Below are positions 815 to 29,976 of a stretch of 35,203 nucleotides of DNA, one piece after another. Each line of letters opens with the position of its first letter. Within the stretch, counting starts at the first letter, position 1. Where the stretch lies: positions 1 to 35,203 of the forward strand of contig CAZLQG010000003.1 of the NCBI GenBank assembly GCA_964561655.1, read 5' to 3'. The notes under the pieces were generated by a model. That model had not been told where the DNA came from, made no database searches, and saw only the letters and a list, made by a program, of their open reading frames with translations. Source of the stretch: an uncultured Candidatus Saccharibacteria bacterium. GTDB lineage: Bacteria; Patescibacteriota; Doudnabacteria; UBA920. Both the position numbers and the translations under genes were made by a program.

Positions 815-1360
815 ATGCTTTTTACAGTATTTTTATTTGTATTTCTTGCTTTTACCCTTTTGGTTCTGTTTGTAATCACCAGCGCTTTTTTGGGTTTTGC
901 TATCACCCGTGTGCCGTTTGTAACTACACCGGAAAAAGAAATCAGCAAAGCAGTAAAGGAGCTTAATATCACACCCAAAGATACATTTTACGATCTTGGA
1001 AGCGGGAACGGTAAAGTTTGTTTTATAGTTAATGAAATTACAGGCGCGGACTGTATGGGATTTGAGCTTACATATTGGAATTATTTGCTGGCGAAAATAA
1101 AGTCAAGAGTCATCAGCCATCAGTCAAGAGTAACCTTTAAAAATCAAAACTTCTTTAAGCATTCTTGGGATGAAGCTGGTTATATATATGCCTATCTTTA
1201 TCCGCCATTGATGGGAAGGGTGGAGGAAAAATTCGTAAAAGAATGCAAACCGGGTAGCATTGCCATAATTAGGGATTTCCCTTTTCCAAAATCTAAGCCT
1301 TTTAAAGTACTTAACACCGGCAAGGGCCATGAAATTTATTTATATAAAAACGGTGGATGA
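815..1360 (+). CDS. membrane-anchored class I SAM-dependent methyltransferase
   Basis: N-terminal TM helix, VPFV motif, YDLGSGNGK motif I; TATAAT at 803-808 directly upstream. Confidence 0.85.
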   Translation: MLFTVFLFVFLAFTLLVLFVITSAFLGFAITRVPFVTTPEKEISKAVKELNITPKDTFYDLGSGNGKVCFIVNEITGADCMGFELTYWNYLLAKIKSRVISHQSRVTFKNQNFFKHSWDEAGYIYAYLYPPLMGRVEEKFVKECKPGSIAIIRDFPFPKSKPFKVLNTGKGHEIYLYKNGG

Positions 1361-1456
1361 CTAAAATTTTGTAGAAGATATTTGTATGATTTTATGTTAA
1401 AATATGCCTTATTTAAGACATATTTTAAGTTATGCACAATTTTTGTAGAAAAAAAG

Positions 1457-1485
1457 TTGACAAAATTACCACATAGTTCTATTAT
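1457..1485 (+). promoter_or_regulatory. sigma70 promoter, probably leaderless
   Basis: TTGACA (1457-1462), 17 nt, TATTAT (1480-1485); ATG 6 nt downstream. Confidence 0.75.
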
Positions 1486-1491
1486 CATAAC

Positions 1492-2238
1492 ATGCAATTT
1501 GAAGCTATTTTAAAAGGTTTGGGACTAAATGACAAAGAAATAGCAGTTTATTTAGCGCTTATAGAGCTTGGTCCTTCGCCGGTTCGCGCCATATCAACAA
1601 AGTCCAAGGTTAACAGGGGCACTACTTACGATATTCTAAAAGCTCTGCAAAACCAGGGTTTGGTTAGTTTTTATGATACCAAGTCTCACCAGTATTTTGT
1701 CGCAGAGCCGCCGGAAAAGTTAATTTTTCTTTTGGAACAAAAAAGCAATAGTATTGAAGAATTAAAATCTAAAATTCAATCCGCTCTTCCTCAAATTAGG
1801 GCAAGGTTCGAAAAGCAGGGAGGCAAGCCGGCAGTTAAGCTGTATGAAGGTTTGAGCGGAATAAGATATATTTTAGAAGATGTGCTTGAAACAATGAGTG
1901 TGAGCGATAAAAAAACTTATTACATTTATTCTTCTTCAGATGTTAGAAAAAATGTCTATTTGGCAATGAAAGACTTTAGTGCAAAGAGAATAAAGAAAAA
2001 TATTAAAGTCCAAAGTATATCTTTAGGAGAGGGAGGACAGCTTGTGGGGTTGGATGAAAGAAAATGGATGAAGTTTCCGGTTAAAGACCTTAAAGCCACT
2101 TATGAAATTATTTACAATGGGAAAGTTGCGCATATTTCTTTAGACAACGCAGAAAATCCAGTCGGCGTGGTAATTCAGAACGATGAAATTTATGAAACCC
2201 AAAAGCTAATTTTTGAAAATATTTGGAATAAGTTGTAG
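1492..2238 (+). CDS. TrmB-family transcriptional regulator
   Basis: LKGLGLNDKEIAVYLAL..RGTTYDILKALQNQGLV winged HTH, YEG motif, C-terminal effector-type domain. Confidence 0.88.
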   Translation: MQFEAILKGLGLNDKEIAVYLALIELGPSPVRAISTKSKVNRGTTYDILKALQNQGLVSFYDTKSHQYFVAEPPEKLIFLLEQKSNSIEELKSKIQSALPQIRARFEKQGGKPAVKLYEGLSGIRYILEDVLETMSVSDKKTYYIYSSSDVRKNVYLAMKDFSAKRIKKNIKVQSISLGEGGQLVGLDERKWMKFPVKDLKATYEIIYNGKVAHISLDNAENPVGVVIQNDEIYETQKLIFENIWNKL

Positions 2239-2296
2239 TTGTCCTGCAGGGCCACAATAGTTTTGCGTTTTGAGTTATTAATTTTGAGATATCTTT

Positions 2297-4156
2297 ATGT
2301 GCGGAATAGTCGGTTATATCGGTAAAAAACAGGCGGCGCCAATCCTATTGCAGGGTTTGCGCGATTTGGAATACCGCGGTTACGATAGCGCTGGGGTTGC
2401 GCTTCTTGAGAATGATAAGATAGTGCGGATTAGAGCAGTAGGTAAAGTAGAAAAACTTGCGGAGAAATTGCAGAATGACCATAATTTATCCCAAATCGGC
2501 ATAGCTCATACCCGCTGGGCAACGCACGGAGGGGTTACGGAAAAAAACGCGCATCCGCATGTGGCTCAAGATGGCAAACTCGCACTAGTGCATAATGGAA
2601 TTATTGAGAATTATCGTGAACTCAAAGAGCAATTGAGCAGAGAGGGGGTAAAGTTTGAGTCAGAGACGGACACGGAGGTGTTGGCGCATTGGATAGCAAA
2701 GAATTATGAATCAGGAATCAGAAATCAGGAATCAGACAACGGCTCTTTGTTGGCGCGTGCAGTGAAGAAAGCATTGATAAGTGTGAGAGGGACTTATGGC
2801 ATCTTAGTTATGCACGCTGACCATCCGGGCCAGCTTGTGGCGGCGCGGCTAGGAAGCCCCCTGGCCATAGGCATAGGCGAAGGCGAGTATTACATTGCCA
2901 GCGATGTCACACCAATGCTTCCTTACACCAAACAAGTGACCTTTTTGGATGATGGAGAGATAGCGTCAATCAATGAGGAAGGTTTGAAGATTGTAAATTT
3001 GCGCAATCAGATAGTTGATAAAGACATTACTCAGATTGATTGGGATCAAGAAACGGCACAAAGAGGTGGGTTTGAGCATTTTATGCTTAAAGAAATTTTT
3101 GACCAGCCCACCGTGTTTGAGGACGCTATAAGAGGGCGCACGGATATGGATGAAGGCACTGCGCATTTGGGTGGGTTGAATATGACAGCTGAGCAGATGA
3201 GAGAGATTAAAAGGATTGCGATAATTGCGGAAGGCACCGCGCGCCACGCGGGACTTATTGGCAAGTATGCCTTTGAACGTTTGGCGAATTTGCCGGTGGA
3301 AGTAGATTTTTCTTCGGAGTTTAGGTACCGCGATCCGATAGTTAATAAATCCACTTTAGTATTTGCCATTTCCCAGTCCGGAGAAACCGCTGACACGCTT
3401 ATGGCCGCGCGTGAAGCTAAAAGAAAAGGCGCGTTCGTTCGGGGCATTGTTAATGTGATTGGCTCAACAATTGCGCGGGAAAGCGGGGCAGGCACTTACA
3501 TTCACGCCGGGCCGGAACTCGCCGTGGCATCCACCAAGGCTTATACGAATATGGTGGCAATTTTGCTTTTGTACGCTTTGCAGTTTGGCCGGCTTAAGCA
3601 TACGTCAATTGCCACGGGACAAAGAATCCTACAAGCGCTTTTGGCAATCCCAGCGCAGATGAATGTTATGTTAAAGCAGAATGATGAAATTAAAAAAATT
3701 GCTAAAAAATATTCAAAATATAATAATATTCTTTTTCTTGGCCGTGGAGTAAATTATCCGGTCGCTTTGGAAGGCGCGCTTAAGCTCAAAGAAATTTCTT
3801 ATATTCACTGTGAAGCTTTTGCCGGAGGGGAAATGAAGCACGGGCCGCTGGCTTTGGTGACCAAAGACGTGCCTGTAGTGGCAATAATGACTAAAAACCA
3901 GCTTTATGAGAAAATTAAAAGTAACGTTTTAGAAGCAAAGGCGCGCGGAGCTAAAATTTTAGCAATTGCCAGTGGAGGCGATGAGGAAATTAAAGAAGTT
4001 GCGGACGACGTAATCTACGTGCCCAAAACCATGGAACTTTTAGAATCGCTTATTAACACCATCCCTTTGCAGCTGTTTGCTTACCATATTGCCGTTGCAT
4101 TGGGACGGGACGTTGACCGCCCGAGAAATTTAGCTAAAAGTGTAACAGTTGAATAA
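2297..4156 (+). CDS. glmS: glutamine-fructose-6-phosphate aminotransferase
   Basis: MCGIVG, LEYRGYDSAG, HTRWATHG, HNGIIEN, SQSGETADT, VASTKAYT, PRNLAKSVTVE. Confidence 0.98.
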   Translation: MCGIVGYIGKKQAAPILLQGLRDLEYRGYDSAGVALLENDKIVRIRAVGKVEKLAEKLQNDHNLSQIGIAHTRWATHGGVTEKNAHPHVAQDGKLALVHNGIIENYRELKEQLSREGVKFESETDTEVLAHWIAKNYESGIRNQESDNGSLLARAVKKALISVRGTYGILVMHADHPGQLVAARLGSPLAIGIGEGEYYIASDVTPMLPYTKQVTFLDDGEIASINEEGLKIVNLRNQIVDKDITQIDWDQETAQRGGFEHFMLKEIFDQPTVFEDAIRGRTDMDEGTAHLGGLNMTAEQMREIKRIAIIAEGTARHAGLIGKYAFERLANLPVEVDFSSEFRYRDPIVNKSTLVFAISQSGETADTLMAAREAKRKGAFVRGIVNVIGSTIARESGAGTYIHAGPELAVASTKAYTNMVAILLLYALQFGRLKHTSIATGQRILQALLAIPAQMNVMLKQNDEIKKIAKKYSKYNNILFLGRGVNYPVALEGALKLKEISYIHCEAFAGGEMKHGPLALVTKDVPVVAIMTKNQLYEKIKSNVLEAKARGAKILAIASGGDEEIKEVADDVIYVPKTMELLESLINTIPLQLFAYHIAVALGRDVDRPRNLAKSVTVE

Positions 4157-4160
4157 GATT

Positions 4161-4907
4161 ATGAAGAATAAATTTGAACAAACTTCACAACCTATACCGG
4201 AACAGATTAGGGAGAGAATGTTAAAGGAACCAGAATACCTTCCTTCGCATGGTGATATTAGAATTGCTTTTCCCACTCAGAAAGAATGGAGTGATTACAG
4301 AGTAGAGGTAGATTTCCACGAATTATTAAATAAAGAATTTTTGGCAGCATTGTCAGATTATCTAGCGAAAAGGATTACTGCTTACGGTGGGACTAAAGAG
4401 CATCCGGTCGTAATATTAGAAGCAGGGGCAGGCGACGGCCGTTTAACTCATTTTTTGTGCCAAGGATTGGAGGAAAGAACGAAAGGTAAATTTAGAATAG
4501 TGGCAGTAGATATAGGCGAGTGGATACCCAACCCCCCTTTTCCTGTAGAGAATATTGATTATAAAGAAGCTTTAAAAGAACATAAGCCCGCAATAGTTAT
4601 ATGTTCTTGGATGCGTCCAAGGACGGACTGGACGGCAGATTTTAGAGGGCAGAAAAGCGTTAAAGAGTATATCTTAATTGGGGAAAAATATGGCGGGGCT
4701 AGCGGTAGAGACTGGGAGACTTGGGGGGTTAAATTAAATGTAGATTCTGGAGGCCCTATAGAAAGACCAGAAACAGCTCCATATAAGGTTGATGGTTTTG
4801 AGAGTTTCGATCTTGAGGATATTAGCCAACATCAAATAGCTTGTACTGATTATCCTCCCTTGGAGCATGAACATTCACATACAGTTTCTTTTAGGAGAAA
4901 AAGTTAA
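4161..4907 (+). CDS. putative SAM-dependent methyltransferase-fold protein
   Basis: ILEAGAGDGRL motif I followed by IVAVD; ATG 4161 chosen just after the glmS stop. Confidence 0.65.
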   Translation: MKNKFEQTSQPIPEQIRERMLKEPEYLPSHGDIRIAFPTQKEWSDYRVEVDFHELLNKEFLAALSDYLAKRITAYGGTKEHPVVILEAGAGDGRLTHFLCQGLEERTKGKFRIVAVDIGEWIPNPPFPVENIDYKEALKEHKPAIVICSWMRPRTDWTADFRGQKSVKEYILIGEKYGGASGRDWETWGVKLNVDSGGPIERPETAPYKVDGFESFDLEDISQHQIACTDYPPLEHEHSHTVSFRRKS

Positions 4908-4926
4908 TTTTATTTCAATACGAATT

Positions 4927-5991
4927 ATGAAACTTTTTGAATATCAGGGAAAAGAATTATTTCAAAAATATGGGATAGCAGTTCCGAAGAGCCAGCTGAT
5001 TTCGGCGCAGACAGAGAGGGCTTCTCTTGAACCGCCATTTATTTTAAAGGCCCAGGTGCTTTCCGGAAACCGCATGAAAAAAGGCGGTATCGTAGTGGTA
5101 GATAGCGTTAGCGAGTTTGAGAATTTAAAAAATAAGATTTTTAATACCCTAATTGACGGGAGTTTGCCGGAAAAAATATTGCTGGAAGAAAAAATTGAGG
5201 CAAAAAAAGAACTGTATATATCTTTTAGCTACAGTACAGATACCCGAACGCCGGTATTTTCCATTTCCGCCAAAGGAGGGGCCGGAGTAAGCGCGGCTGA
5301 TATTTTTTCAATAGATTTAACGGAAGAACTGACAGATTCTGTCCTGCGGAATTGGCTTGATAAGACTAAAATTTTAGCTTCAGGCGGGTTACTGAAGGCC
5401 ATTCGTTCTTTATGGAAATTATTTTTAGATGAGAAGGCTTTAATTGCGGAAATTAACCCGTTGTTTGAGTTGGACAGCGACGCGTTTGTTGCCGGTGATG
5501 CCAAAATTGTTTTGGACGATAACGCGGTTAATCCGAAGTTCCGGCCCTTTTTGGATTTGGACGGTGATATTGCGGTGCTGGCATCCGGCGGCGGCGCTTC
5601 GCTTATCAACTTGGACGCTTTGCTCAAGCACGGGGGCAGGCCGGCAAATTACGTTGAATATTCCGGCAACCCGCCGGCGTCCGTGGTGGAAGAACTCACA
5701 GTCAAAGTCTTGTCTAAACCGAATTTAAAAGGCTGCTGGGTTATCGGCGGGCTTGCGAACTTTACCGACATTTATGAAACTTTGCTTGGGTTTGTGCAGG
5801 GACTTAAGAAAATTAAACCCCTGCCTTCCTATCCGATTGTTATCCGCAGAGATGGGCCAAGGCAGAAAGAAGCTTATAAAATGCTAAATGAAACGGCGAA
5901 AAAAGAGGGTTTTGACTTTCATTTATATGGACCGGAAATTTCCATGTCGGATTCGGCCGGAATAATGGTTAAATTAGCTTATAACAAATGA
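4927..5991 (+). CDS. ATP-grasp + citrate-binding subunit (ATP-citrate lyase beta / citryl-CoA synthetase large subunit)
   Basis: MKLFEYQGKELF, KAQV, EINPL (SucC/AclB ATP-grasp) plus ACL-type ASGGGAS, ANYVEYSGNP and GGLANFTDI. Confidence 0.85.
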   Translation: MKLFEYQGKELFQKYGIAVPKSQLISAQTERASLEPPFILKAQVLSGNRMKKGGIVVVDSVSEFENLKNKIFNTLIDGSLPEKILLEEKIEAKKELYISFSYSTDTRTPVFSISAKGGAGVSAADIFSIDLTEELTDSVLRNWLDKTKILASGGLLKAIRSLWKLFLDEKALIAEINPLFELDSDAFVAGDAKIVLDDNAVNPKFRPFLDLDGDIAVLASGGGASLINLDALLKHGGRPANYVEYSGNPPASVVEELTVKVLSKPNLKGCWVIGGLANFTDIYETLLGFVQGLKKIKPLPSYPIVIRRDGPRQKEAYKMLNETAKKEGFDFHLYGPEISMSDSAGIMVKLAYNK

Positions 5992-6896
5992 GTATATTAA
6001 TAGATGAAAATACAAAAGTCCTGATTCAGGGTATTACGGGCAAGGAAGGATCACGCGCAGCGGGAGAAATTTTTCGGTACGGCACGCGGGTATTAGCGGG
6101 CGTAACTCCCGGGAAAGGCGGGCAGACCACGGAAATTGGAGCGCCGGTGTTCAACAGTGTGAAGGAAGCCTTGGCAAAATTCCCGGAGATAAATACCAGT
6201 TTAATTGTTGTACCGGCGCCGTTTGTGCTGAGCGCGGCAACAGAAGCTATTGAATGTAAAATACCTTTGATAAATATTTTAACGGAAAAAGTTCCGGTAC
6301 TGGATGTGGCAAAAATTATAAGCTTGGCGCTTCGGGCAGGAGTTAAAGTTGTAGGCCCGAGTTCAGTGGGAATTATTTCTCCCAAAAAAGCAAAAATCGG
6401 CAGTATTGGCAGTTCGGAGCTGGTCCATAAAACTTTTGCTTCCGGCTTTGTGGGAGTTATGTCTAAAAGCGGCGGTATGACAGCGGAAATTTCCAGAATT
6501 TTGACAGAAAGCGGTCTGGGGCAAAGCACTGTCGTGGGGATTGGCGGTGATTTGCTTATTGGTTCGGATTTTGTAGATTTAGCCTTGGAATTTGAAAAAG
6601 ACCCGGAGACTAAAGTGCTGGTAATTTTTGGTGAAGTGGGGGGTTCCTATGAAGAAAAATTGGCGGAGGCAATGCGGCAAAAGAAAATAAAGAAGCCGGT
6701 TGTAGCGTTGATTGCCGGAAGATTTTCTGAAAAATTGCCGCAAGACACCGTGCTGGGGCATGCAGGAGCGATTGTCAGCAAGGGAAAAGGTTCGGCTAAT
6801 TCCAAAATTGCAGCTTTGGAAAAAGCAGGCGCAGTGATTGCGGAAATTCCGGAGGATATTTCTTTATTGGTTAAAAAAATTATTAATGCCAACTAA
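5988..6896 (+). CDS. CoA-binding/phosphohistidine subunit (SucD-like; citryl-CoA synthetase small subunit)
   Basis: QGITGKEG, GVTPGKGG, SKSGGM, GIGGD, GEVGG, GHAGA; ATGA overlap with the upstream gene. Confidence 0.88.
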   Translation: MSILIDENTKVLIQGITGKEGSRAAGEIFRYGTRVLAGVTPGKGGQTTEIGAPVFNSVKEALAKFPEINTSLIVVPAPFVLSAATEAIECKIPLINILTEKVPVLDVAKIISLALRAGVKVVGPSSVGIISPKKAKIGSIGSSELVHKTFASGFVGVMSKSGGMTAEISRILTESGLGQSTVVGIGGDLLIGSDFVDLALEFEKDPETKVLVIFGEVGGSYEEKLAEAMRQKKIKKPVVALIAGRFSEKLPQDTVLGHAGAIVSKGKGSANSKIAALEKAGAVIAEIPEDISLLVKKIINAN

Positions 6897-6897
6897 T

Positions 6898-7602
6898 ATG
6901 AAATTTAAAACAGCCATAAGCCAAACCAAAAACAACAAACACTATATTTGGGGAAAAGATATTTTAGAATTAATGGACAGGCATTCTTTTACTGAAGTTA
7001 TTTTTTTGTTTTTGCGCGGCAGTTTGCCAAAAAAAAATGAACAAGCACTTTTGGAAGCTGTGCTAATTGCCGCCACGGAGAACGGGATAGAAGCGCCGTC
7101 GCTGTTTGTGCCGCGCGTGGTTGCGGCCAGCGGAAATGAATTTCATGCTGCATTGGCCGCAGGCATGCTTTCCATAGGCGAAAAACACGGCGGGGCAGCA
7201 GGAAAAGCCGCAGAGCTGTTTAGCTGCGGCAAAAGCGCGGAGCAGATTGTTAAAGAAAATAAGATTATTCCCGGCTTCGGGCATAAAATGTATAAAGACG
7301 AAGACCCAAGGGCGACTTTGTTGCATCAAAAATCTAAAGATTTAGGCTTTTCGGGGAAGTATTTTGAAATTGCCAAAGAAATTGAGAAAATATTAGCGGA
7401 AAAGAAAGGCAGGGAATTGCCTTTGAATATTGACGGCGCTATGGCTTGCTGTATGTTGGAATTGGGGCTTGATGCCAAACTGGGCAAAGCCTTGTTCTTG
7501 ATCGGCCGCATTGTCGGTATGTCTGCGCACATTTTGGAAGAATACAAGCAGGGGAATAGTTATTATAGGCTGGGGGAAGATGAAATTGAATATCAAGAAT
7601 AA
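6898..7602 (+). CDS. citryl-CoA lyase (citrate synthase-like fold)
   Basis: HGGA, IPGFGH, DPR, LNIDG, GR..G..AH motifs; about 234 aa stand-alone. Confidence 0.85.
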   Translation: MKFKTAISQTKNNKHYIWGKDILELMDRHSFTEVIFLFLRGSLPKKNEQALLEAVLIAATENGIEAPSLFVPRVVAASGNEFHAALAAGMLSIGEKHGGAAGKAAELFSCGKSAEQIVKENKIIPGFGHKMYKDEDPRATLLHQKSKDLGFSGKYFEIAKEIEKILAEKKGRELPLNIDGAMACCMLELGLDAKLGKALFLIGRIVGMSAHILEEYKQGNSYYRLGEDEIEYQE

Positions 7603-7607
7603 ATTTG

Positions 7608-7673
7608 ATGAAAGCATTGGTTTTCGACTCCAGTACCACAACCTTCGGCTGGCTACGGGGTAGGCAAAAGTAA
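7608..7673 (+). other. duplicated tdh 5' end (mini-ORF MKALVFD...) with a short palindrome
   Basis: ATGAAAGCATTGGTTTTCGA (7608) vs ATGAAAGCACTAGTTTTCGA (7683); imperfect palindrome at 7627-7661. Confidence 0.7.
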
Positions 7674-7682
7674 ACCTATGTT

Positions 7683-8858
7683 ATGAAAGCACTAGTTTTC
7701 GATAAATCAAAATCTGACTGGGAAAGCTCGCGCGGGTTTGATTTGGTAAATATTTCGGAGCCAAGCATCAATGAAAAAGAAAACCCCGGCGATGCTAATT
7801 ATGTCATTATTAAAGTCCACTACGCGGGTATTTGTGGCACAGACCGGGGCATTTGGAATAGGCAAGCTTTTAAGGATGCCATTTTAAATACTATAGACGA
7901 ACAAGTAAAAAATGGCGGTAATCCTTATAGAATCATTGGCCATGAATTTTTTGGCGAAGTGGTAAAAGTGGGCAGTAAGGTAAAAAATGTAAAGCCCGGG
8001 GACTTTGTGAGCCAGGAATCTCATGTTGTTTGCAATAACTGCTATCAGTGCAAGCGGGGAGAAAAGCACGTCTGCACTAACGAGAAAATTTTGGGAATTT
8101 CTCACGACGGAGGTTTTTGCGAATATGCTAAAATCCCTTCGTATATTCTCTGGAAAACGGACACCAGTAAGATTCGTCCCGAGATAGCGGCTATGCAGGA
8201 GCCGTTTGGCAATGCAGTACACGCCGCATCTAAAGTAGACGTTAAAGGAAAAACCGTGGCAATTTTTGGCCTTGGTCCGATTGGCATGTTTTTGACAATG
8301 ATAGTTAAAGGCATGGGTGCGTTAAGCATTATTGGCATAGAACCGAACCCGGTGGCGATTGATATGGCTAAAAAGTTGGGGATTGATTACGTGATTCCAT
8401 TGAAGAAAATAGTACACAGTAAACAGTACTCAGCAAAGCCATATCAACATAATCCCGAAGTAACCGATGAGATTATGAAAATTACTAAAGGAATTGGCGT
8501 GGATGTGAGTTTTGAGATGGCAGGCTTTAATGACTCGGTGAACAATGCCATTGCCGGCGTCCGCCGCGGCGGGGAAGTTATTTTGTTCGGCTTGAAAACC
8601 GGGGATTTCGTGTTTGAAGACTATAATAAGTTGGTAATGAAAGGAATTACTATGTACTGCGTGGCGGGCAGGCGGGTTTGGGATACCTGGAAAATCACAA
8701 AAAAATTGTTTGAAGATACGGGAAATAAAATCCAGGAAAATATGTGGAATGTAATCCTGGACCAGGGCAGAGGGACAATTTTACCGATTTCGGAGTATAC
8801 TAAAGACAGGTTTGAACAAATGATGAGCGAGCACCCAAAATTATTAATACAGTTTTAA
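7683..8858 (+). CDS. tdh: Zn-dependent L-threonine 3-dehydrogenase
   Basis: GICGTD, GHE, ESHVVCNNCYQC..C structural Zn site, EPFGNAVH, GLGPIG; kbl nearby. Confidence 0.88.
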   Translation: MKALVFDKSKSDWESSRGFDLVNISEPSINEKENPGDANYVIIKVHYAGICGTDRGIWNRQAFKDAILNTIDEQVKNGGNPYRIIGHEFFGEVVKVGSKVKNVKPGDFVSQESHVVCNNCYQCKRGEKHVCTNEKILGISHDGGFCEYAKIPSYILWKTDTSKIRPEIAAMQEPFGNAVHAASKVDVKGKTVAIFGLGPIGMFLTMIVKGMGALSIIGIEPNPVAIDMAKKLGIDYVIPLKKIVHSKQYSAKPYQHNPEVTDEIMKITKGIGVDVSFEMAGFNDSVNNAIAGVRRGGEVILFGLKTGDFVFEDYNKLVMKGITMYCVAGRRVWDTWKITKKLFEDTGNKIQENMWNVILDQGRGTILPISEYTKDRFEQMMSEHPKLLIQF

Positions 8859-9436
8859 ATGGCGGGATTACAGAAGTTATCAGATCAAGCCTCTTATGCT
8901 AGTTTGGCATTAAGCAGTGTTTATTATTTGTTTGATTGTGCTAATAAGTATGGAGAAGATGCTATTCTAATTAAGAGTATAAATGAAAAAATACACCAAC
9001 TTTTGAAACTCTCGCAGCTTTTTGTATTGAATTGTTTCTGAAAGTATTGATAGGCTGTGATATTTGTTTAGAAAACAAGAATACAAAAAAGTCCACTGAA
9101 GAGATAATTAAAGATATACAGAAAAAAATGACGGGATATGGGCACGATATAAGAAAGCTTTTTGATGATAATCAATTGTTATGTAAAAAATTACAAATAA
9201 GTGTCGTATCGACGTTCCGAAATCAGTTTATTCATAAATATGAAATTTTGTTTGTAAATAATGACAGAATTGATATTAGAAATTTTGAAGCTATTAGATA
9301 TGGAGCATTTGCAAAAAGTCCAAACTATTCATACGGATCAATCAAAAATAACGACAAGATAGAAGAATTTTTAAATAATCTAAAAAACTATGTGTGGAAA
9401 GTATTTAACTACACAGCAAAAGAATTAAAAAAATAA
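8859..9436 (+). pseudogene. frameshifted AT-rich HEPN-like gene
   Basis: The two ORFs join if one A is added to the A6 run at 8986-8991; second frame reads FETLAAFCIELFLK..GHDIRKLF..IRY. Confidence 0.6.
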
Positions 9437-9440
9437 GCCT

Positions 9441-10628
9441 ATGTTTACCAATATAAAACAACAATTTGAGGAGGAACTAAAGGCTATTAAAGACGCGGGG
9501 ACGTGGAAAGAGGAGTGGGTTATTTCTTCTGTCCAGGGCGCGGAAATAGAGGCGCAAGGAAAAAAGCTTTTGAATTTTTGCGCGAATAATTATCTTGGCC
9601 TCGCATCTTCCAAAGAGTTGGCCGAGGCTGCCATTGAAGGCGTTAAAAAATACGGCTACGGTATGGCCTCTGTTAGGTTTATTTGCGGTACTTCCACGAT
9701 TCATAAAGATTTGGAAAAAGAAGTATCCAAGTTTTTCGGCACGGAAGATGCTATTTTATATACATCCTGTTTTGACGCTAACACCGGACTTTTTGAGACA
9801 GTTTTAACGGACGAAGACGCAATTTTAAGTGACCAGTTGAACCATGCGTCTATCATAGACGGCGTGCGTTTGTGCAAAGCGGAAAGGTACAGGTATGAAC
9901 ATTTAAATATGAAAGACTTGGAAGAGAAGCTTAAAGAAGCTTCGGGCAAACGAAGGAAACTGATAGCTACTGACGGCGTGTTCAGTATGGACGGTGAGAC
10001 AGCCAAAGTTAAAGAAATTTGCGATTTGGCGGAAAAGTACGGCGCAATGGTGATGGTGGACGACAGTCACGGCAGTGGTGTTTTAGGCGAAAACGGCAGA
10101 GGCGCGGTGGAAGGCTTAATGGACAAAGTGGATATTCTAACATCAACTTTTGGAAAAGCTTTGGGCGGTGCGGGCGGCGGGTTTACCGCAGGAAGGAGAG
10201 AAATTATAGATGTTTTAAGGCAAAGATCGCGTACCGCATTATTTTCCAACGCGCTTCCTCCAATGATAGCTTCAGCGGCCTTGTATGTTTTGCAGAATTT
10301 TGATTCATCGCTTTCGCATCTGCGCAAACAATTAGCCAAGAACATGGCCTACTTCAGAGAAAAAATGGAAAAATTAGGCTTTACTTTGGGAGGAGACGGT
10401 AAACATTCAATTACTCCGGTTATGCTTTATGAAGAGCGCGTGGCTACCGAAATGGCCGACAAGCTTTTTGAAAAAGGCATTTACGTAAAAGGTTTTACCT
10501 ATCCGGTGGTGTCTAAAGGCACCGCGCGTATCCGTGTGCAAATATCGGCGGTTCATACAAAAGAGCAGATGGACAAGACAGTAAGAGCGTTTAAAGTAGT
10601 GGGGAAGGAAATGAAGATAATTAATTAA
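9441..10628 (+). CDS. kbl: glycine C-acetyltransferase (2-amino-3-ketobutyrate CoA ligase)
   Basis: [59 protein letters not shown]. Confidence 0.96.
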
Positions 10629-10733
10629 GTACCAAGAACCAAATAATAAGTACCAAACAAGCACCAATATTAAAATTGAAAAAAAAATTGAAATTTGGAA
10701 TTTGTTTGGATCTTGGTTTTTGTGATTTGGAAC
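10629..10733. repeat. heptamer-periodic inverted repeat element
   Basis: GTACCAA GAACCAA ATAATAA GTACCAA.. mirrored by TTGGATC TTGGTTT TTGTGAT TTGGAAC. Confidence 0.75.
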
Positions 10734-10743
10734 TCAAAAAGCT

Positions 10744-11718
10744 ATGAAGAATATTGTAATAATCGGCGGGGGGACGGGGACATTTACTTTGCTTTCCGGC
10801 CTTCGCAGGTTTCCTACAAATAATTCAGTCATCGTGTCATCAGCTGATGACGGCGGAAGCACAGGCAGGTTAAGATCCGACCTCGGCGTTTTTCCTCCCG
10901 GGGATTTGCGCCAGTGCCTTTTGGGGCTTTCCTATACGGAAAAAGAAATGCAGGACTTGTTTTCCTACCGTTTTGAAAAAGGCGAGCTTAAAGGGCATAC
11001 GGTGGGCAATATAATCTTGTCGGCTTTAAGCAAAACATTGAGAGGAGTTGAACCGGCAATAAAACAGGTGGCTAAAATGTTGAACGTGCGCGGCGAGGTC
11101 GTGCCGGTGACTTTGTTTCCAACCACACTTTCGGCGACTTTAAAGAATGGAAAAAAGATTATCGGAGAGCATAATATTGATGAACCAAAAGTAAAGTCCA
11201 GGCCCCCCATTAAGAATTTAAAACTTTTACCTTCCGCTCCCGCCAACAGAAGGGCTTTGAGGTCTATAAGAAAGGCGGATGTAATTATTTTAGGCCCCGG
11301 GGACTTATTTACCAGCATTTTGCCGAATTTGCTGGTAAAAGGCGTGGGCCAGGCCATGGCCAAATCAAGAGCCAAAAAAGTTTTAGTGGTTAATTTAATG
11401 ACCAAAAAGGGGCAGACCGATGGTTTTACGGTGGCGGATTTCGTAAACACGGTCAATAGATACTTAGGCAAAGCCAAACTGGGTGCGGTCATCATTAACA
11501 GCAAAAAACCCAATTCCGGCATTTTGGCAAAATATAAAAAAGAGGGGGCGAAGTTTATAGAGCCGGACACCAGCCAGTTAAAACGACTGGGCATTATGGT
11601 TATTTCCAAAGATTTGCTCTCTAAAAACGTGTTCAGTAAAGCAAATGGGGATGCTTTGATGAGAAGTTTTCTTAGGCACGATTCAGATAAATTAGCGAAG
11701 ATTATATATAATTTGTAA
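10744..11718 (+). CDS. yvcK: YvcK/GlmR (UPF0052/CofD-like) UDP-GlcNAc-binding protein
   Basis: IGGGTG, DDGGSTGRLR, PPGDLR, GHTVGN, GPGDLFTSILPNL, RHDSDKLA. Confidence 0.93.
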   Translation: MKNIVIIGGGTGTFTLLSGLRRFPTNNSVIVSSADDGGSTGRLRSDLGVFPPGDLRQCLLGLSYTEKEMQDLFSYRFEKGELKGHTVGNIILSALSKTLRGVEPAIKQVAKMLNVRGEVVPVTLFPTTLSATLKNGKKIIGEHNIDEPKVKSRPPIKNLKLLPSAPANRRALRSIRKADVIILGPGDLFTSILPNLLVKGVGQAMAKSRAKKVLVVNLMTKKGQTDGFTVADFVNTVNRYLGKAKLGAVIINSKKPNSGILAKYKKEGAKFIEPDTSQLKRLGIMVISKDLLSKNVFSKANGDALMRSFLRHDSDKLAKIIYNL

Positions 11719-11730
11719 TTTATAAAGTTT

Positions 11731-11841
11731 TGTCATCCCGACCGAGTTCCGACTTGTCGGGACGAGTGGAGGGAACCCTTGTACGTCCTAAGAACAATAT
11801 TTAAGGGATTCCTCGACTCACTATGTTCGCTCGGAATGACA
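11731..11841. repeat. REP/RPE-like palindromic element (TGTCATCCCGA..TCGGAATGACA)
   Basis: Terminal inverted repeats with inner GAGGGAACCCTT/AAGGGATTCCTC stem; related copy at 13192-13273. Confidence 0.8.
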
Positions 11842-11852
11842 GTGGGGATTTT

Positions 11853-12194
11853 ATGAAAACCAGTATAAAAAAATCTATCAAGCAATCGAAAGCCATAAAG
11901 TTTGAAGTTAAAGATGGCAGAAAAACAATAGGCCGCGCGTATTTGTATATCATTAAAAATGATTTGCACAAAAAGCCTTACGGCCTTTTGGAGGATTTGT
12001 TTGTGGAAGAAGCCTACCGAAAGCAAGGATTGGGAACAAAATTATTGATAAAGGTGATTAGTGAAGCAAAAAAGAGAAAGTTATACAAACTCATTGGCAC
12101 GAGCAGGACTTCTAGAATGAAGGCCCATAAATTTTATGAAAAGTATGGTTTTAAAAAATACGGGTACGAGTTCCGCATGAATTTAACCAAATGA
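11853..12194 (+). CDS. GNAT acetyltransferase, GNA1-like (candidate glucosamine-phosphate N-acetyltransferase)
   Basis: GLLEDLFV..YRKQGLG..LYKLI..FYEKYGF; ATGA overlap with the GlmU-like gene. Confidence 0.8.
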   Translation: MKTSIKKSIKQSKAIKFEVKDGRKTIGRAYLYIIKNDLHKKPYGLLEDLFVEEAYRKQGLGTKLLIKVISEAKKRKLYKLIGTSRTSRMKAHKFYEKYGFKKYGYEFRMNLTK

Positions 12195-12925
12195 AAGATC
12201 AAATTATCATTCTGGCGGCGGGGAAAGGCACCCGCCTAAACCACGAAAGCCTGCCTAAGGTTTTAGTGCTTTTTAGGGGACAGCCTTTAATTAAGCATTT
12301 GCTTTTAAGAATTTCCAAAATCATCCAAAGCACAAAACCAATAGTGGTTGTGGGCTTTATGGCAGAAAAAGTAAAAGCCACGTTGGGAAACAGGTTTGAG
12401 TACGTTTTGCAGGAACCGCAGCTTGGCACCGCGCATGCCGTGCGCGCGGCCAAGGAAAAAATAAAAGCGGAAAACGTTTTGGTTTTGTATGGCGATATGC
12501 CTTTTATTACGGAAGGTAGCTTAAGGAAACTAATCAGAATGCATCACGATGAAAAGGCAAACCTTTCCATGTTCACCGCCACCGTGCCGAATTTTGAAAA
12601 TGAATTTGCAGGCTTGTTGCATTATGGCAGAATAATCCGCAGTTTCAACAAAGAATTTGTTAAAATTACGGAATTTAAAGACGCAAGCGACGCAGAGAAA
12701 AACATTAAAGAACTAAATACCGGAATTTATATGTTTAATTCGCAATGGCTGTGGAAAAACATAAAAAAAATTAAAAATAAAAATGTGCAGAAAGAATATT
12801 ATCTTACTGACATCGTGGAAATTGCCATAGAGCAGAAAGAAAAAATATATTCGCTTGCCATAGATCCCAAAGAGGTGATTGGTATAAACAGCAAGGAAGA
12901 CTTGGAGAGAGTGGAATCCCGTTAG
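12191..12925 (+). CDS. glmU: GlmU-like N-acetylglucosamine-1-phosphate uridylyltransferase, N-terminal domain only
   Basis: ILAAGKGTR, LPKVL, QLGTAHA, YGDMP, YGRI, ELNTGIY, EYYLTD, GIN; ends before the hexapeptide acetyltransferase domain. Confidence 0.88.
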   Translation: MKDQIIILAAGKGTRLNHESLPKVLVLFRGQPLIKHLLLRISKIIQSTKPIVVVGFMAEKVKATLGNRFEYVLQEPQLGTAHAVRAAKEKIKAENVLVLYGDMPFITEGSLRKLIRMHHDEKANLSMFTATVPNFENEFAGLLHYGRIIRSFNKEFVKITEFKDASDAEKNIKELNTGIYMFNSQWLWKNIKKIKNKNVQKEYYLTDIVEIAIEQKEKIYSLAIDPKEVIGINSKEDLERVESR

Positions 12926-12991: not shown

Positions 12992-13038
12992 GTGGATATC
13001 ATACGCCCGCCCCTCTTAAGTAAGAGGGGATTTTTATT

Positions 13039-13080
13039 TTGACAGTATGCTGTATGATATTATATGATAAAGTATGATAA
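13039..13080 (+). promoter_or_regulatory. sigma70 promoter overlapped by three TATGATA repeats
   Basis: TTGACA (13039-13044), 18 nt, TATGAT (13063-13068); TATGATA at 13053, 13063 and 13073. Confidence 0.7.
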
Positions 13081-13273: not shown

Positions 13274-13385
13274 AAATAAATTTTTGTCATCTGCCACTGC
13301 CCTGTTAGTTCAGAGGGGCCAGAGGCAGTTGTACACCCCAAATTCAAGGAGGGGTGATGATTTTAGGGAGACAAGGAGAACCGGA

Positions 13386-14624
13386 ATGGTAGAGTTGGGA
13401 ACTTTCCCGAGAATTGATTCACTTCCGCCATACGTATTGGCGGAGGTAACCAGAGAGAAACAAAAATACCGTCATGATCAGCTAGATATCATCGATTTTG
13501 GAATGGGTATACCTGACGGTCCCACACCTCAAATCGTGGTGGACAAGCTGAAGACGGCGGTTGACGACAAACGCAATCATCGCTATTCACAATCCATAGG
13601 GATCCCCATGTTGCGGGTTGAGATAGCGAAACGCTATCAGGCTCGCTACGGCGTCAGATTGGATCCGGATAGCGAAGCCATCGTCAGCATCGGTGCCAAG
13701 GACGCATTGGCCCACCTGCTAATTGCCGTTCTGAATGCCGGCGATGGCGTGGCGACACATTGCCCTTCATATCCTATCCATATGCAGGGGGTGGTATTTG
13801 CCGGTGGCGTGCCGTTTCTGCTGGAGATGCCGAGTCCAGATGAATTTCTTAATCGGCTTCACGACCTGTACCGGATGTTGGCGTGCAAGCCGCGCATGAT
13901 CCTCATCTCTTTCCCGCACAATCCCACAACCCAATGTGTGGAGTTGGACTTCTTTAAGGAGATAGTCCGGTTGGCGCATCAGCATGGTACCATGGTCGTC
14001 CACGACTTCGCCTACGCGGACCTGGGCTTTGACGGTTACCAACCGCCGAGCATGCTTCAAGTCCCGGGAGCGAAGGAAGTGGGCGTGGAGATTTTCTCTT
14101 TGTCCAAGAGCTTCAACATGTCGGGTTGGCGCGTGGGGTTTTGCATTGGCAACCTGAGGATGGTGGAGGCACTGCGGAAGATCAAGAGTTATTTGGATTA
14201 TGGTGTATTCCAACCTATCCAGATCGCGTCCATCATTGCCATGCGACACTGCGAAGAGGACACCCGGCGCATTTGTGCCACGTACCAGAGGCGGCGGGAT
14301 GTGCTCGTTGAAGGACTCAACTCAATCGGCTGGCCAGTTGATAAGCCTAGGGGAACAATGTTTGTCTGGGCACCGATACCAGAGTCTTTTCAAAATATGG
14401 GCTCACTACAGTTCTCGAAGCTTCTTCTGGAGAAGGCGCTTGTGGCTGTTTCCCCTGGTGTGGGTTTTGGACCGTTTGGTGAAGGGTACGTTCGTTTCGC
14501 GCTGATTGAGAACTTTCATCGCACGAGACAAGCCCTCCACAATCTCAAAACAACCTTCAGAGGCTGGGAAAGCCCGCATCCGCGGCGACGACGAAAGCAA
14601 GCCGCTATCGCAGTCTCCACTTGA
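13386..14624 (+). CDS. alaC: class I/II PLP aminotransferase, AlaC/DapL-like
   Basis: LPPYV, IDFGMG.PD, YPIH, FPHNPT, HDFAY, SLSKSFNMSGWRVGF, KSYLDYG; ATG preceded by AAGGAG. Confidence 0.82.
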   Translation: MVELGTFPRIDSLPPYVLAEVTREKQKYRHDQLDIIDFGMGIPDGPTPQIVVDKLKTAVDDKRNHRYSQSIGIPMLRVEIAKRYQARYGVRLDPDSEAIVSIGAKDALAHLLIAVLNAGDGVATHCPSYPIHMQGVVFAGGVPFLLEMPSPDEFLNRLHDLYRMLACKPRMILISFPHNPTTQCVELDFFKEIVRLAHQHGTMVVHDFAYADLGFDGYQPPSMLQVPGAKEVGVEIFSLSKSFNMSGWRVGFCIGNLRMVEALRKIKSYLDYGVFQPIQIASIIAMRHCEEDTRRICATYQRRRDVLVEGLNSIGWPVDKPRGTMFVWAPIPESFQNMGSLQFSKLLLEKALVAVSPGVGFGPFGEGYVRFALIENFHRTRQALHNLKTTFRGWESPHPRRRRKQAAIAVST

Positions 14625-18279: not shown

Positions 18280-19545
18280 ATGCGCATTATTGCAGATTTT
18301 CATATTCATTCAAAATATTCCAGGGCATGCAGTCAGGAGCTCACTCCAAAAAACATTGGTCTTTGGGCAGACAAAAAGGGTATTCAGGTAATTTCAACTG
18401 CAGACTTTACCCATCCGAAATGGTTAATTGAACTCAAAGAAAATTTGGAAGAGGTAAAGCCAGGATTATATCAGCTGCGTGATAAGAGCGCGGGTGCTTA
18501 TTTTTTTTGTTCTTTAGAAATTTCTTCTATTTATAAACAAGGAGACAAAATTAGAAGAATACACAATGTTATTTTCGCCCCAAATTTTGAAGCGGTTGAG
18601 AGAATCATAAGTAGCTTGAAAAAAGCCGGGGCGAACCTGTCGGCAGATGGCAGGCCAATCACCGGCATTCATTGCGATGATTTGGTAAAAATAGTTAAAG
18701 AAGCATCGCAGGCAGCCGAGGTAATTCCGGCCCATGCCTGGACGCCGCATTTCGGAGTATTCGGTTCTTTGTCGGGTTTTGACAGCGTGGAGGAAGCGTT
18801 TGGCGACCAATCCAAACATATCTTTGCCATTGAAACGGGTTTGTCTTCTGACCCAAAAATGAACTGGCAGATATCAAGCTTAGATAAATACACTTTGGTT
18901 TCAAATAGCGACGCTCACAGTTTGCGCAAAATCGGGCGCGAAGCCAATGCGTTTGAAATAGATCCAGAGAAACTATCTTACGCGGAAATTATTCGTATCA
19001 TTAAGGACAATGACCCGAAAGAATTTTTATACACCATTGAGTTTTTTCCGGAGGAAGGAAAATATCATTTGGACGGCCACAGGGACTGCAAGTTTTCCTG
19101 TGAACCTTCCAAGACCAAAAAACTTGGCGGAATTTGTCCAGTCTGTGGCAAGAAGCTTTTGGTTGGCGTATTAAACCGGGTGGACGAACTTTCCGATCGT
19201 GAATACGGCTTTGAGCCGCAAAGCCGGGTGCCTTATAAAAGTGTTATTCCCTTAGAGGAAATTATCGCGGAAACTTTGGACGTGGGCGTGGCAAGCAAAA
19301 AAGTTTCTGGTTTTTATGAGCGGATGACAAGCCAGCGTCCGGAATTCGACATTTTATTGGATTTAGACAAAGATCAAATATCTAAAATCAGCAATCCTCA
19401 AATCGCGGAGTCAGTCATCCGCGTCAGAGAAGGCAGGGTCGCCTTAGAAGGCGGCTATGATGGAGTTTTTGGCAAAATCAAGATATACTCCGAAGAGGAG
19501 AGGGAAAAACTGTTTAGTAAACCAAAACAGGAGAGTTTGTTTTAA
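18280..19545 (+). CDS. endonuclease Q family protein (PHP domain + Zn finger)
   Basis: DFHIHSKYSRA, PAHAWTP, ETGLSSD, NSDAHS, GKYHLDGHRDC..CPVCGK, GYDGVFG. Confidence 0.9.
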   Translation: MRIIADFHIHSKYSRACSQELTPKNIGLWADKKGIQVISTADFTHPKWLIELKENLEEVKPGLYQLRDKSAGAYFFCSLEISSIYKQGDKIRRIHNVIFAPNFEAVERIISSLKKAGANLSADGRPITGIHCDDLVKIVKEASQAAEVIPAHAWTPHFGVFGSLSGFDSVEEAFGDQSKHIFAIETGLSSDPKMNWQISSLDKYTLVSNSDAHSLRKIGREANAFEIDPEKLSYAEIIRIIKDNDPKEFLYTIEFFPEEGKYHLDGHRDCKFSCEPSKTKKLGGICPVCGKKLLVGVLNRVDELSDREYGFEPQSRVPYKSVIPLEEIIAETLDVGVASKKVSGFYERMTSQRPEFDILLDLDKDQISKISNPQIAESVIRVREGRVALEGGYDGVFGKIKIYSEEEREKLFSKPKQESLF

Positions 19546-29935: not shown

Positions 29936-29976
29936 AGTTCTTTTATTACGAGGATATTCTAACTTAAAATATTTAA

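Follow-up and report, generated by a model that had tools for sequence, protein, structure and literature searches.

Gene content of the cluster

We analyzed contig CAZLQG010000003.1 (contig C3) of an uncultured Candidatus Saccharibacteria bacterium that is placed in the Doudnabacteria. On this contig, a run of genes between positions 1492 and 12925 combines enzymes for the synthesis of UDP-N-acetylglucosamine (UDP-GlcNAc) with two sets of predicted acetyl-CoA-forming enzymes. The window, meaning the whole stretch of DNA that was analyzed, is this entire contig of 35.2 kb; the genome to which it belongs comprises 830,723 bases on 45 contigs and is estimated to be 95.5% complete. Every gene within 1492-12925 lies on the plus strand, as judged from the listing of open reading frames (ORFs) and from Pfam and NCBIfam scans. 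The features of the cluster are listed here in order, with the family scores that support each assignment.

1457..1485, plus strand: sigma-70-like promoter match (11/12), just upstream of the regulator gene
1492..2238, plus strand: TrmB-family helix-turn-helix regulator, 248 aa (PF01978, 54.1 bits)
2297..4156, plus strand: GlmS, glutamine--fructose-6-phosphate aminotransferase (TIGR01135, 788.7 bits, cut-off 418; NF001484, 811 bits)
4161..4907, plus strand: class-I S-adenosylmethionine-dependent methyltransferase-like protein, 248 aa (motif VILEAGAGDG in the translation)
4927..5991, plus strand: citryl-CoA synthetase, large (beta-like) subunit (PF08442, 91.9 bits, and PF16114, 84.2 bits)
5988..6896, plus strand: citryl-CoA synthetase, small (alpha-like) subunit, 302 aa (PF02629 and PF00549)
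6898..7602, plus strand: citryl-CoA lyase, start at 6898 or possibly 6886 (NF004869, 215.3 bits, cut-off 212)
7683..8858, plus strand: L-threonine 3-dehydrogenase (Tdh), Zn-dependent, of the medium-chain dehydrogenase/reductase type, 391 aa with insertions (NF003808, 257.3 bits, cut-off 380)
9032..9436, plus strand: ORF of 134 aa in the variable spacer between Tdh and Kbl (no family match)
9441..10628, plus strand: Kbl, glycine C-acetyltransferase (2-amino-3-ketobutyrate CoA ligase; NF005394, 590.8 bits, cut-off 460; TIGR01822, 570.8 bits, cut-off 493)
10744..11718, plus strand: YvcK/GlmR-family protein (TIGR01826, 319.8 bits, cut-off 196; PF01933, 302.7 bits)
11853..12194, plus strand: minimal GNAT acetyltransferase, 113 aa (PF00583, 54 bits)
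12191..12925, plus strand: stand-alone N-terminal uridyltransferase domain of GlmU (GlmU-N), 244 aa (NF010934, 224 bits)
13010..13029, plus strand: terminator-like hairpin after the last gene (8-bp stem and T run), with a promoter-like site next to it at 13039-13068

All ten genes that an earlier, sequence-only reading had named in this run, from the regulator to GlmU-N, were recovered, co-directional and in place. Two ORFs had been overlooked in it (4161-4907 and 9032-9436), and some genes begin later than their longest ORFs: as set by homologues and start codons, the true starts lie at 4927 for the AclB-like large subunit, at 6886 or 6898 for the lyase, and at 11853 for the GNAT. From glmS through the lyase gene, neighboring genes are separated by at most 19 nt or overlap, and the genes for the GNAT and GlmU-N overlap by 4 nt.

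The first gene had been proposed to act as a sugar-sensing control of the TrmB type. Its N-terminal helix-turn-helix domain is clear, with PF01978 well above the threshold of 25.6 bits, and this winged helix is the only part of the protein that was recognized. Sugar sensing is not supported beyond this domain: the full-length equivalog NF040851 gave 35.4 bits against a cut-off of 600, over residues 6-131 only, and the protein has 248 aa against a model of 338 positions. Of the 39 class loci with GlmS, 32 have a TrmB-type gene ahead of it, and 5 of the 7 others had too little upstream sequence to judge. The YvcK/GlmR family, encoded near the other end of the cluster, is annotated as UDP-GlcNAc-binding.

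The citrate and threonine gene sets

The citrate genes are assigned to the split type, in which citryl-CoA synthetase (CCS) and citryl-CoA lyase (CCL) are separate, rather than to the fused ATP citrate lyase (ACL) type, because the lyase is a gene of its own and because the large subunit and the lyase are nearest to a solved CCS large subunit (6hxq_B, 137.6 bits) and a solved CCL (6hxp_A, 165 bits), which were their best PDB matches. The large subunit contains an ATP-grasp domain and a citrate-binding domain of the ACL type. The small subunit, which has no paralogue elsewhere in the genome, consists of CoA-binding and CoA-ligase domains; its best PDB match was the alpha subunit of succinyl-CoA synthetase (SCS; 2yv2, 270 bits), with the CCS small subunit 6hxq_A at 200 bits. 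A fused ACL alpha subunit (~610 aa with a C-terminal lyase domain) was not found: the alpha-like gene encodes 302 aa, and 6hxj_B scored below the CCS and SCS chains. The lyase is encoded by a separate, short gene of the citrate synthase fold that starts 1 nt after the preceding stop codon. Both enzymes look intact, since the phosphohistidine loop GHAGA (GHAGAIV, aligned with SCS-alpha) and the His-, His- and Asp-bearing motifs of the lyase (HGGA, GFGHKMYK, and NIDGA) align with those of solved proteins.

The origin of these genes appears to differ from that of the rest of the cluster. A database search returned no protein with more than 67% identity to the CCS large subunit, its homologues in many Patescibacteria being at 53-67%; GlmS and Kbl of the window share 70-84% identity with their counterparts in most class relatives. 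The citrate set is judged to have been acquired horizontally, as a lineage-specific insertion in this genome. No credible copy of the large subunit was found in 60 relatives (0/36 in the family, with one weak 21-bit match elsewhere in the order). Mis-assembly of the insertion was considered and rejected, because contigs from other runs span both sides of the citrate genes: the junctions between GlmS and the methyltransferase-like gene, between this gene and the AclB-like gene, and between CCL and Tdh are bridged by short DNA contigs from four other runs, one of which is possibly the source sample of the window itself. Inside glmS, a single high-depth contig (43-113x, against ~3-5x for the organism) was seen in four runs to join the two ends of positions 3096-3363, with only 22 matching letters on its shorter side; it most likely represents the conserved glmS of an abundant, unrelated organism.

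The methyltransferase-like gene at 4161-4907 is probably a passenger of the citrate-gene insertion. It had no sequence match in Pfam, NCBIfam, or PDB and no homologue in the loci of relatives; its structural neighbors in the ESM Atlas include methyltransferases, which provides a lead only.

The threonine route is represented by Tdh and Kbl. Tdh scored below the curated equivalog cut-offs (for TIGR00692, 239.9 bits against 458, in addition to NF003808 above). Its five best PDB matches are all threonine dehydrogenases, however, at 206 (2dfv) to 152 bits, with the next family at 104 bits, and the Zn-ligand motifs CGTD, GHE, and CxxCxxC...C align with those of solved enzymes. Its product looks like an intact Zn-dependent L-threonine 3-dehydrogenase. 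Kbl exceeded both curated equivalog cut-offs. The 134-aa ORF between the two belongs to no Pfam or NCBIfam family and has no homologue among the inserted ORFs of relatives, where other, unrelated genes occupy this position. In five relatives (loci L039, L040, L038, L041, and L042 of genomes G005, G001, G027, G053, and G028, respectively), a short insertion interrupts the Kbl match around residue 170; the two halves of the G005 gene are in separate frames (195 and 242 aa), and this copy may be broken or split.

Gene sets for acetyl-CoA in one slot between glmS and yvcK

The core gene order recurs in dozens of related genomes, far from what chance would give. Within the organism's class, 132 genomes of at least 85% completeness were compared. 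GlmS was found in 43 of them (the organism's own included) and the GNAT in 40. In a set of 60 relatives, 16 had Kbl and 17 had GlmS: 15 had both, 1 had Kbl only, 2 had GlmS only, and 42 had neither (counts uncorrected for phylogeny). Around the 16 Kbl genes of these relatives, Tdh was adjacent in every case, YvcK and the GNAT came next in 15, and GlmS lay upstream in the same locus in 12; citrate genes were present in none. Another 25 GlmS loci of the class were inspected, of which 21 read GlmS-Tdh(-Kbl-YvcK-GNAT-GlmU-N), 2 were on contigs too short to judge, and 2 differed.

Taken over the 42 other GlmS-bearing genomes of the class, Tdh and/or Kbl were in the cluster in 36, in 33 of which GlmS belonged to the same locus. 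The remainder consist of two genomes that swap Tdh/Kbl for other genes, two with a divergent GlmS, and two that could not be judged. The coupling between acetyl-CoA enzymes and UDP-GlcNAc synthesis that had been proposed from the window is thus supported by the 33 of 42 genomes with GlmS and Tdh in one locus, and by the gain and loss of Kbl and the GNAT together with GlmS; it agreed with all of the tests that were run, and none of the findings named beforehand as contradicting it was made. Synteny had been expected to be conserved as well; this holds in the class for Tdh/Kbl with GlmS, and fails for the citrate trio (0/60), yet the trio adjoins GlmS, YvcK, and GlmU in other classes of the Patescibacteria.

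One of the genomes in which Tdh/Kbl are swapped for other genes, G002, has no Tdh/Kbl and carries a phosphotransacetylase (Pta) and a phosphoketolase (Xfp) between GlmS and YvcK. No other Pta was found in the 60 relatives. The same slot of G092 is occupied by a HAD phosphatase, a HIT-like ORF, an acetyl-CoA synthetase (Acs), and a phosphoketolase fused to a CoA-binding domain. This fusion (locus L130, 8966-11764) is a phosphoketolase of 932 aa with a C-terminal CoA_binding_2 domain, and it might hand acetyl-phosphate on to CoA without Pta. In G101, G027, and G005, Acs stands beside Tdh/Kbl. Acs is found in 9 of the 132 class genomes, 5 of them in the organism's family (4 in the slot) and 4 in a GlmS-less family that has pyruvate:ferredoxin oxidoreductase (PFOR). 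The genome of the window, finally, has citrate genes in the slot in addition to Tdh/Kbl. Four biochemically unrelated gene sets thus occur in one slot, and what they have in common is acetyl-CoA or, for Xfp, its precursor acetyl-phosphate; of all the results, we consider this one the most informative.

Acetyl-CoA routes and consumers elsewhere in the genome

That the organism would have no standard route from pyruvate to acetyl-CoA was also raised as a possibility from the window, and the assembled genome agrees. Searches for PFOR, acetate kinase (AckA), Pta, AMP-binding proteins including Acs, and pyruvate formate-lyase (PFL) gave no matches, while the control genomes were positive, as they were in the other negative searches of this section. 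Pyruvate dehydrogenase (PDH) was not found either, the only E1_dh matches in the genome being one transketolase and one split transketolase, and Xfp, Pta, and Acs remained without a match when the proteins of relatives were used as tblastn queries.

Consumers of acetyl-CoA are scarce as well. Ketoacyl synthase was absent from this genome and from 20 relatives. The hexapeptide repeat PF00132 had no match genome-wide (14 of 14 control genomes were positive), and the GNAT of the cluster is the sole PF00583 match in the whole genome. With one GNAT, no fatty-acid synthase, and no hexapeptide acyltransferase, few other uses of acetyl-CoA are visible. The genome does contain one MurA/AroA-family gene and one phosphohexomutase, on contig C36, which is a candidate GlmM.

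A GNAT beside a stand-alone GlmU N-terminal domain

GlmU-N covers positions 2-234 of the 447-position GlmU model, and the protein ends at 244 aa without the left-handed beta-helix (LbH) acetyltransferase domain. The GNAT encoded directly upstream has the acetyl-CoA-binding motif RKQGLG in its translation. The distribution of this GNAT follows that of GlmS: among the 132 class genomes (own included), 39 have both, 4 have GlmS only, 1 has the GNAT only, and 88 have neither, again without correction for phylogeny. When only the 131 other class genomes are counted, 38 have both, so that the GNAT is found in 38 of 42 GlmS-bearing genomes and in 1 of 89 without GlmS. As this is the sole GNAT in a genome that encodes no hexapeptide protein, tracks the distribution of GlmS, and appears translationally coupled to GlmU-N, it most probably does the work of the hexapeptide domain that GlmU lacks here.

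Citrate genes beside glmS in other Patescibacteria

Homologues of the CCS large subunit at the identities given above occur in the Wildermuth-, Yanofsky-, Andersen-, Sung- and other candidate groups. In a scan with one genome per species, 311 stretches encode a relative, of which the best 80 loci were kept. Within these best 80, the small subunit was found in 79 and the lyase in 75; GlmS was in the flanks of 27 (directly upstream on the same strand in 19), and YvcK in those of 20 (downstream of the lyase in 14). Tdh-Kbl was present too in one, while six instead follow DnaG-RpoD. In two loci viewed in detail, LeuRS precedes the order GlmS-CCS/CCL-(GNAT)-YvcK, a bifunctional GlmU with its hexapeptide domain, Sua5, and serine hydroxymethyltransferase (SHMT).

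Among 400 genomes sampled evenly across the phylum, 186 had GlmS and 16 had the CCS large subunit. GlmS was present in 15 of the 16 CCS-bearing genomes and in 171 of the 384 that lacked CCS (Fisher p ~1e-4, not corrected for kinship). In 6 of the 15 genomes with both, the genes are within 3 kb on the same strand; in 2, they are 34-36 kb apart, and in 4, they are on different contigs. For the rest, GlmS is at a contig end in 1, and its coordinates were not listed for 2. Seen from the side of GlmS, 72 loci outside the class were inspected (every other one of 143 listed): citrate genes lie within 9 kb in 5, YvcK is present in 13, and no Tdh/Kbl, Acs, Xfp, or Pta was detectable with the queries used.

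A probable UDP-GlcNAc operon with its own acetyl-CoA supply

We regard it as likely that the cluster is a UDP-GlcNAc biosynthesis operon that carries its own, swappable supply of acetyl-CoA. Starting from the identities, order, conservation, and co-occurrence of the genes, and from the non-detection of the acetyl-CoA routes and consumers that were searched for, we infer the substrates and direction of the enzymes, the target of the GNAT, co-transcription of the genes, and the origin of the threonine and citrate. GlmS would convert fructose-6-phosphate into glucosamine-6-phosphate, which the phosphohexomutase encoded on contig C36 would probably turn into the 1-phosphate. The 113-aa GNAT is predicted to N-acetylate the amino sugar phosphate, taking the place of the missing GlmU hexapeptide domain, and the stand-alone GlmU N-domain would add UMP. 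The acetyl-CoA would be supplied by two routes encoded between glmS and yvcK. In the first, which appears to be the ancestral route of the class, Tdh and Kbl would use NAD+ and CoA to turn threonine into glycine and acetyl-CoA; in the second, the putatively horizontally acquired CCS/CCL would convert citrate, ATP, and CoA into acetyl-CoA and oxaloacetate. The YvcK/GlmR protein and the TrmB-type regulator likely control the pathway.

Several observations, given here and along with the alternatives below, weigh against this interpretation. No route for the oxaloacetate was found: the genome has no match to the lactate/malate dehydrogenase (Ldh/Mdh) N-domain and no ATP-type phosphoenolpyruvate (PEP) carboxykinase. 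A citrate transporter was not identified either, no search aimed at one having been made. Of the RNA sequencing runs, none was listed as containing positions 2297-12200; the organism occurs in lake water. About 4.5% of the genome is unassembled, and genes could hide there. The promoter- and terminator-like sites that bracket the cluster are weak evidence, as neither promoter-like sites (36 against 31.4 +/- 6.0) nor terminator-like sites (23 against 18.5 +/- 4.7) are more frequent in the region than in shuffles. Exceptions occur in the class: the GlmS of G013 and G079 is divergent (42-47% identity) and lies away from any acetyl-CoA genes in genomes that lack the GNAT, and in family f6, PFOR and Acs are present and GlmS is missing.

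The strongest of the alternatives, which we nevertheless consider unlikely, is that there is no dedicated coupling and the genes form part of a central-metabolism block. Tdh/Kbl would then serve glycine production for one-carbon and purine metabolism, CCS/CCL would serve oxaloacetate or aspartate, and acetyl-CoA would be a by-product. The cluster indeed sits inside a larger co-directional block of central carbon genes, as the plus strand continues with an aminotransferase, glyceraldehyde-3-phosphate dehydrogenase (GAPDH), a phosphoglycerate-mutase-type gene, pyruvate kinase, and PEP synthase, and SHMT is encoded a few genes downstream in two Wildermuthbacteria-type loci. G011 retains Tdh-Kbl without GlmS, and the coupling is not general in the phylum, most GlmS loci of the phylum sample being without these genes. 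The cluster is also a hot-spot for unrelated inserts, including methyltransferases, HAD phosphatases, Trp-repressor-like helix-turn-helix proteins, an EamA transporter, a two-component system, and a NUDIX gene; because such genes insert here too, location alone is no proof of function. Against this alternative, the biochemically unrelated sets Tdh/Kbl, CCS/CCL, Xfp with Pta, and Acs use the same slot and have acetyl-CoA or, for Xfp, acetyl-phosphate in common. In the family, this slot alone holds Pta and 4 of the 5 Acs genes, Kbl and CCS/CCL are rarely found outside genomes that have GlmS, and the scarcity of other acetyl-CoA uses argues in the same direction.

It is less probable still that the GNAT has another target, either proteins, as for RimI, or small molecules or antibiotics, with UDP-GlcNAc made by way of an unrecognized enzyme or from salvaged GlcNAc; acetyl-CoA made by the cluster would then still be produced and be used elsewhere. 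The best NCBIfam match of the GNAT was rimI, at 41 bits against a cut-off of 86, and its best PDB matches were aminoglycoside and polyamine acetyltransferases. The GNA1 chains 1i12 and 1i21 match at E ~1e-3 and 23 bits, more weakly than several unrelated GNATs, and the protein is no more like known glucosamine-phosphate N-acetyltransferases than like other GNATs. In some CCS/CCL clusters, a GNAT accompanies a full GlmU that has an acetyltransferase domain of its own, and no fusion of a GNAT with GlmU was found among the longer proteins searched, which is weak evidence. A general protein acetyltransferase, on the other hand, would not be expected to follow GlmS across the class as this GNAT does, and the GNAT gene overlaps the start of the GlmU-N gene by 4 nt. 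Because the genome encodes no hexapeptide-repeat protein, there is no other candidate for the acetylation of glucosamine phosphate.

Finally, it is very improbable that the citryl-CoA enzymes run in the synthetic direction, joining threonine-derived acetyl-CoA to oxaloacetate to give citryl-CoA and conserving the thioester as ATP in an energy-yielding acetyl-CoA sink: the resemblance of the alpha-like subunit to true, reversible SCS, the lack of Pta, AckA, or other routes from acetyl-CoA to ATP, and the position of the trio directly upstream of Tdh/Kbl would fit this, but no supply of oxaloacetate was detected (the Ldh/Mdh and PEP carboxykinase searches above), the beta-like subunit has the citrate-binding domain of ACL, and in most other lineages the trio stands with GlmS, YvcK, and GlmU without Tdh/Kbl or another detectable source in the flanks (the queries used there did not include Xfp, Pta, or Acs), so that in those lineages it must be a source of acetyl-CoA rather than a sink.

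Neighboring genes and other observations

The contig opens with the 3' end of a 23S rRNA gene (1-388) and a complete 5S rRNA gene (633-748), as found in a gathering-level Rfam scan, which places the amino-sugar cluster just downstream of an rRNA operon. A terminator-like hairpin follows the 5S rRNA gene at 754-782. In the same scan, only rRNA and tRNA genes were found in the window, and no glmS ribozyme or riboswitch.

Downstream of the cluster, a class I/II aminotransferase is encoded at 13284-14624 (plus strand), a homologue of which comes after GlmU-N in several relatives. It scored 514 bits for alanine transaminase (cut-off 647) and 460 bits for LL-diaminopimelate aminotransferase (cut-off 648). 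We considered it as the step from oxaloacetate to aspartate, an assignment that stays ambiguous with both scores below their cut-offs; it could be linked to peptidoglycan or to the handling of oxaloacetate or pyruvate. Further along, the 421-aa gene at 18280-19545 (plus strand) belongs to no Pfam family; many Doudnabacteria, and some Patescibacteria outside that group, have it beside the glmS cluster. It was ruled out as a missing pathway enzyme because it is a homologue of Endonuclease Q (PfuEndoQ 5zb8, 155 bits; TIGR00375, 174 bits).

Related clusters contain further genes that could bear on the pathway. A conserved HAD_2 hydrolase of 220-225 aa is encoded between the GNAT and GlmU-N in locus L133 (10329-11003) and in five other class loci, and could be a sugar-phosphate phosphatase or mutase of the pathway. 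In G007 and G032, an EamA-family transporter of 290 aa is encoded between Tdh and Kbl (L036, 7922-8794, and L035, 11235-12107), and may serve in substrate uptake; the interval from GlmS to Tdh contains genes for a PAS histidine kinase and a response regulator as well as a NUDIX gene.

Two more observations concern the genome at large. On the minus strand of the window, at 28838-31181, a deoxyhypusine-synthase-family gene, a gene for a small EamA/SMR-like membrane protein, and an arginase/agmatinase-family gene stand together, and this trio may be polyamine-related. On contig C12 (~900-7800), PEP synthase matched at five separate places within 7 kb in tblastn, each time with its mobile phosphohistidine domain (residues ~388-490), which suggests a tandem family of PEP-utilizer-domain genes.

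Relation to known systems

The individual parts of the cluster resemble well-known systems, from which they differ in context. The CCS/CCL enzymes of Hydrogenobacter thermophilus (6hxq, 6hxp) are likewise three separate polypeptides with the same domain make-up, and serve the reductive tricarboxylic acid (TCA) cycle in that organism. Here, the genes belong to an amino-sugar cluster, and no context of autotrophy was detected, TCA-cycle genes not having been searched for. The proteins have low identity to the solved ones, and the small subunit is nearer to SCS-alpha than to CcsB (200 bits).

As in the tdh-kbl operon of the Escherichia coli type, a Zn-dependent threonine 3-dehydrogenase adjoins a glycine C-acetyltransferase. 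In our cluster, Tdh is longer as a result of its insertions and falls below the equivalog cut-offs, and the pair sits between glmS and yvcK, with both of which it is inherited. The role we propose for it is an anabolic supply of acetyl-CoA, not catabolism. Threonine is known as a main source of acetyl-CoA in trypanosomes.

GlmR (YvcK) of Bacillus subtilis, a UDP-GlcNAc-binding activator of GlmS, belongs to the same family (TIGR01826), and the two share a genomic association with glmS. In Bacillus, yvcK is found with yvcJ and whiA; here, it is part of the amino-sugar cluster. Bifunctional GlmU has the N-domain in common with the protein described here, whose C-terminal hexapeptide domain is absent from the gene and from the whole genome. 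Eukaryotic GNA1 offers a precedent for N-acetylation of glucosamine-6-phosphate by a GNAT, as proposed here; the present GNAT, at 113 aa, has no specific similarity to it.

A related case is a Gracilibacterium of the Candidate Phyla Radiation (CPR), the ACL of which was read as making acetyl-CoA and oxaloacetate from external citrate (PMC6851277). In the accessible parts of that paper, the organism resembles ours in its reduced CPR genome, in the predicted formation of acetyl-CoA from scavenged citrate, and in the use of GHAGA as a marker. It differs in that its ACL has two subunits and is called rare in the CPR, and in that UDP-GlcNAc is predicted to be imported; no link to GlmS, YvcK, or GlmU is reported in those parts. 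The system described here has three genes, is widespread in the Patescibacteria (the 311 stretches above), and is physically tied to de novo synthesis of UDP-GlcNAc. An enrichment of aclAB in Saccharimonadia is given in the available portion of a survey (PMC12577380). Neither in the portions available of these two papers nor in those of PMC9802188 and PMC10811913 is the linkage described, although their supplementary tables could list such genes. A full-text search of the literature, which did not cover supplementary tables, retrieved no description of acetyl-CoA genes inside a glmS-yvcK-glmU cluster, of Tdh/Kbl in this role in the CPR, or of a GNAT that replaces the C-domain of GlmU. The organization of the cluster and its evolutionary pattern are new, while the enzyme families and their chemistry are known from textbooks.

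Implications for the Patescibacteria

In the very small genomes of CPR bacteria, or Patescibacteria, it is often hard to tell where basic building blocks such as acetyl-CoA come from. For one lineage, this locus and its relatives offer a concrete, testable answer, in which acetyl-CoA would be made next to, and probably for, the N-acetylation of the cell-wall amino sugar, the only step with a visible need for it. Depending on what is available, it would be derived from threonine, citrate, sugar phosphates via phosphoketolase, or acetate.

A wider proposition, which we put forward tentatively, is that acetyl-CoA has become a single-purpose metabolite in Patescibacteria that make UDP-GlcNAc. These would carry an exchangeable cassette in the glmS-yvcK-glmU operon, drawing on threonine, citrate, pentose phosphate, or acetate, which is swapped horizontally according to what the host or habitat offers; the GNAT of the Doudnabacteria would then be a new bacterial type of glucosamine-phosphate N-acetyltransferase. 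That non-orthologous genes have replaced one another at a single position, in a series supplied by nature, speaks strongly for function on comparative grounds, and the GNAT in place of the GlmU C-domain is a candidate new amino-sugar acetyltransferase. The CCS/CCL genes of Patescibacteria, which are easily scored as markers of the reverse TCA cycle, more likely serve the supply of acetyl-CoA. Lastly, the metabolites that these cells have to obtain from their hosts can be predicted from the locus, which could help in their cultivation.

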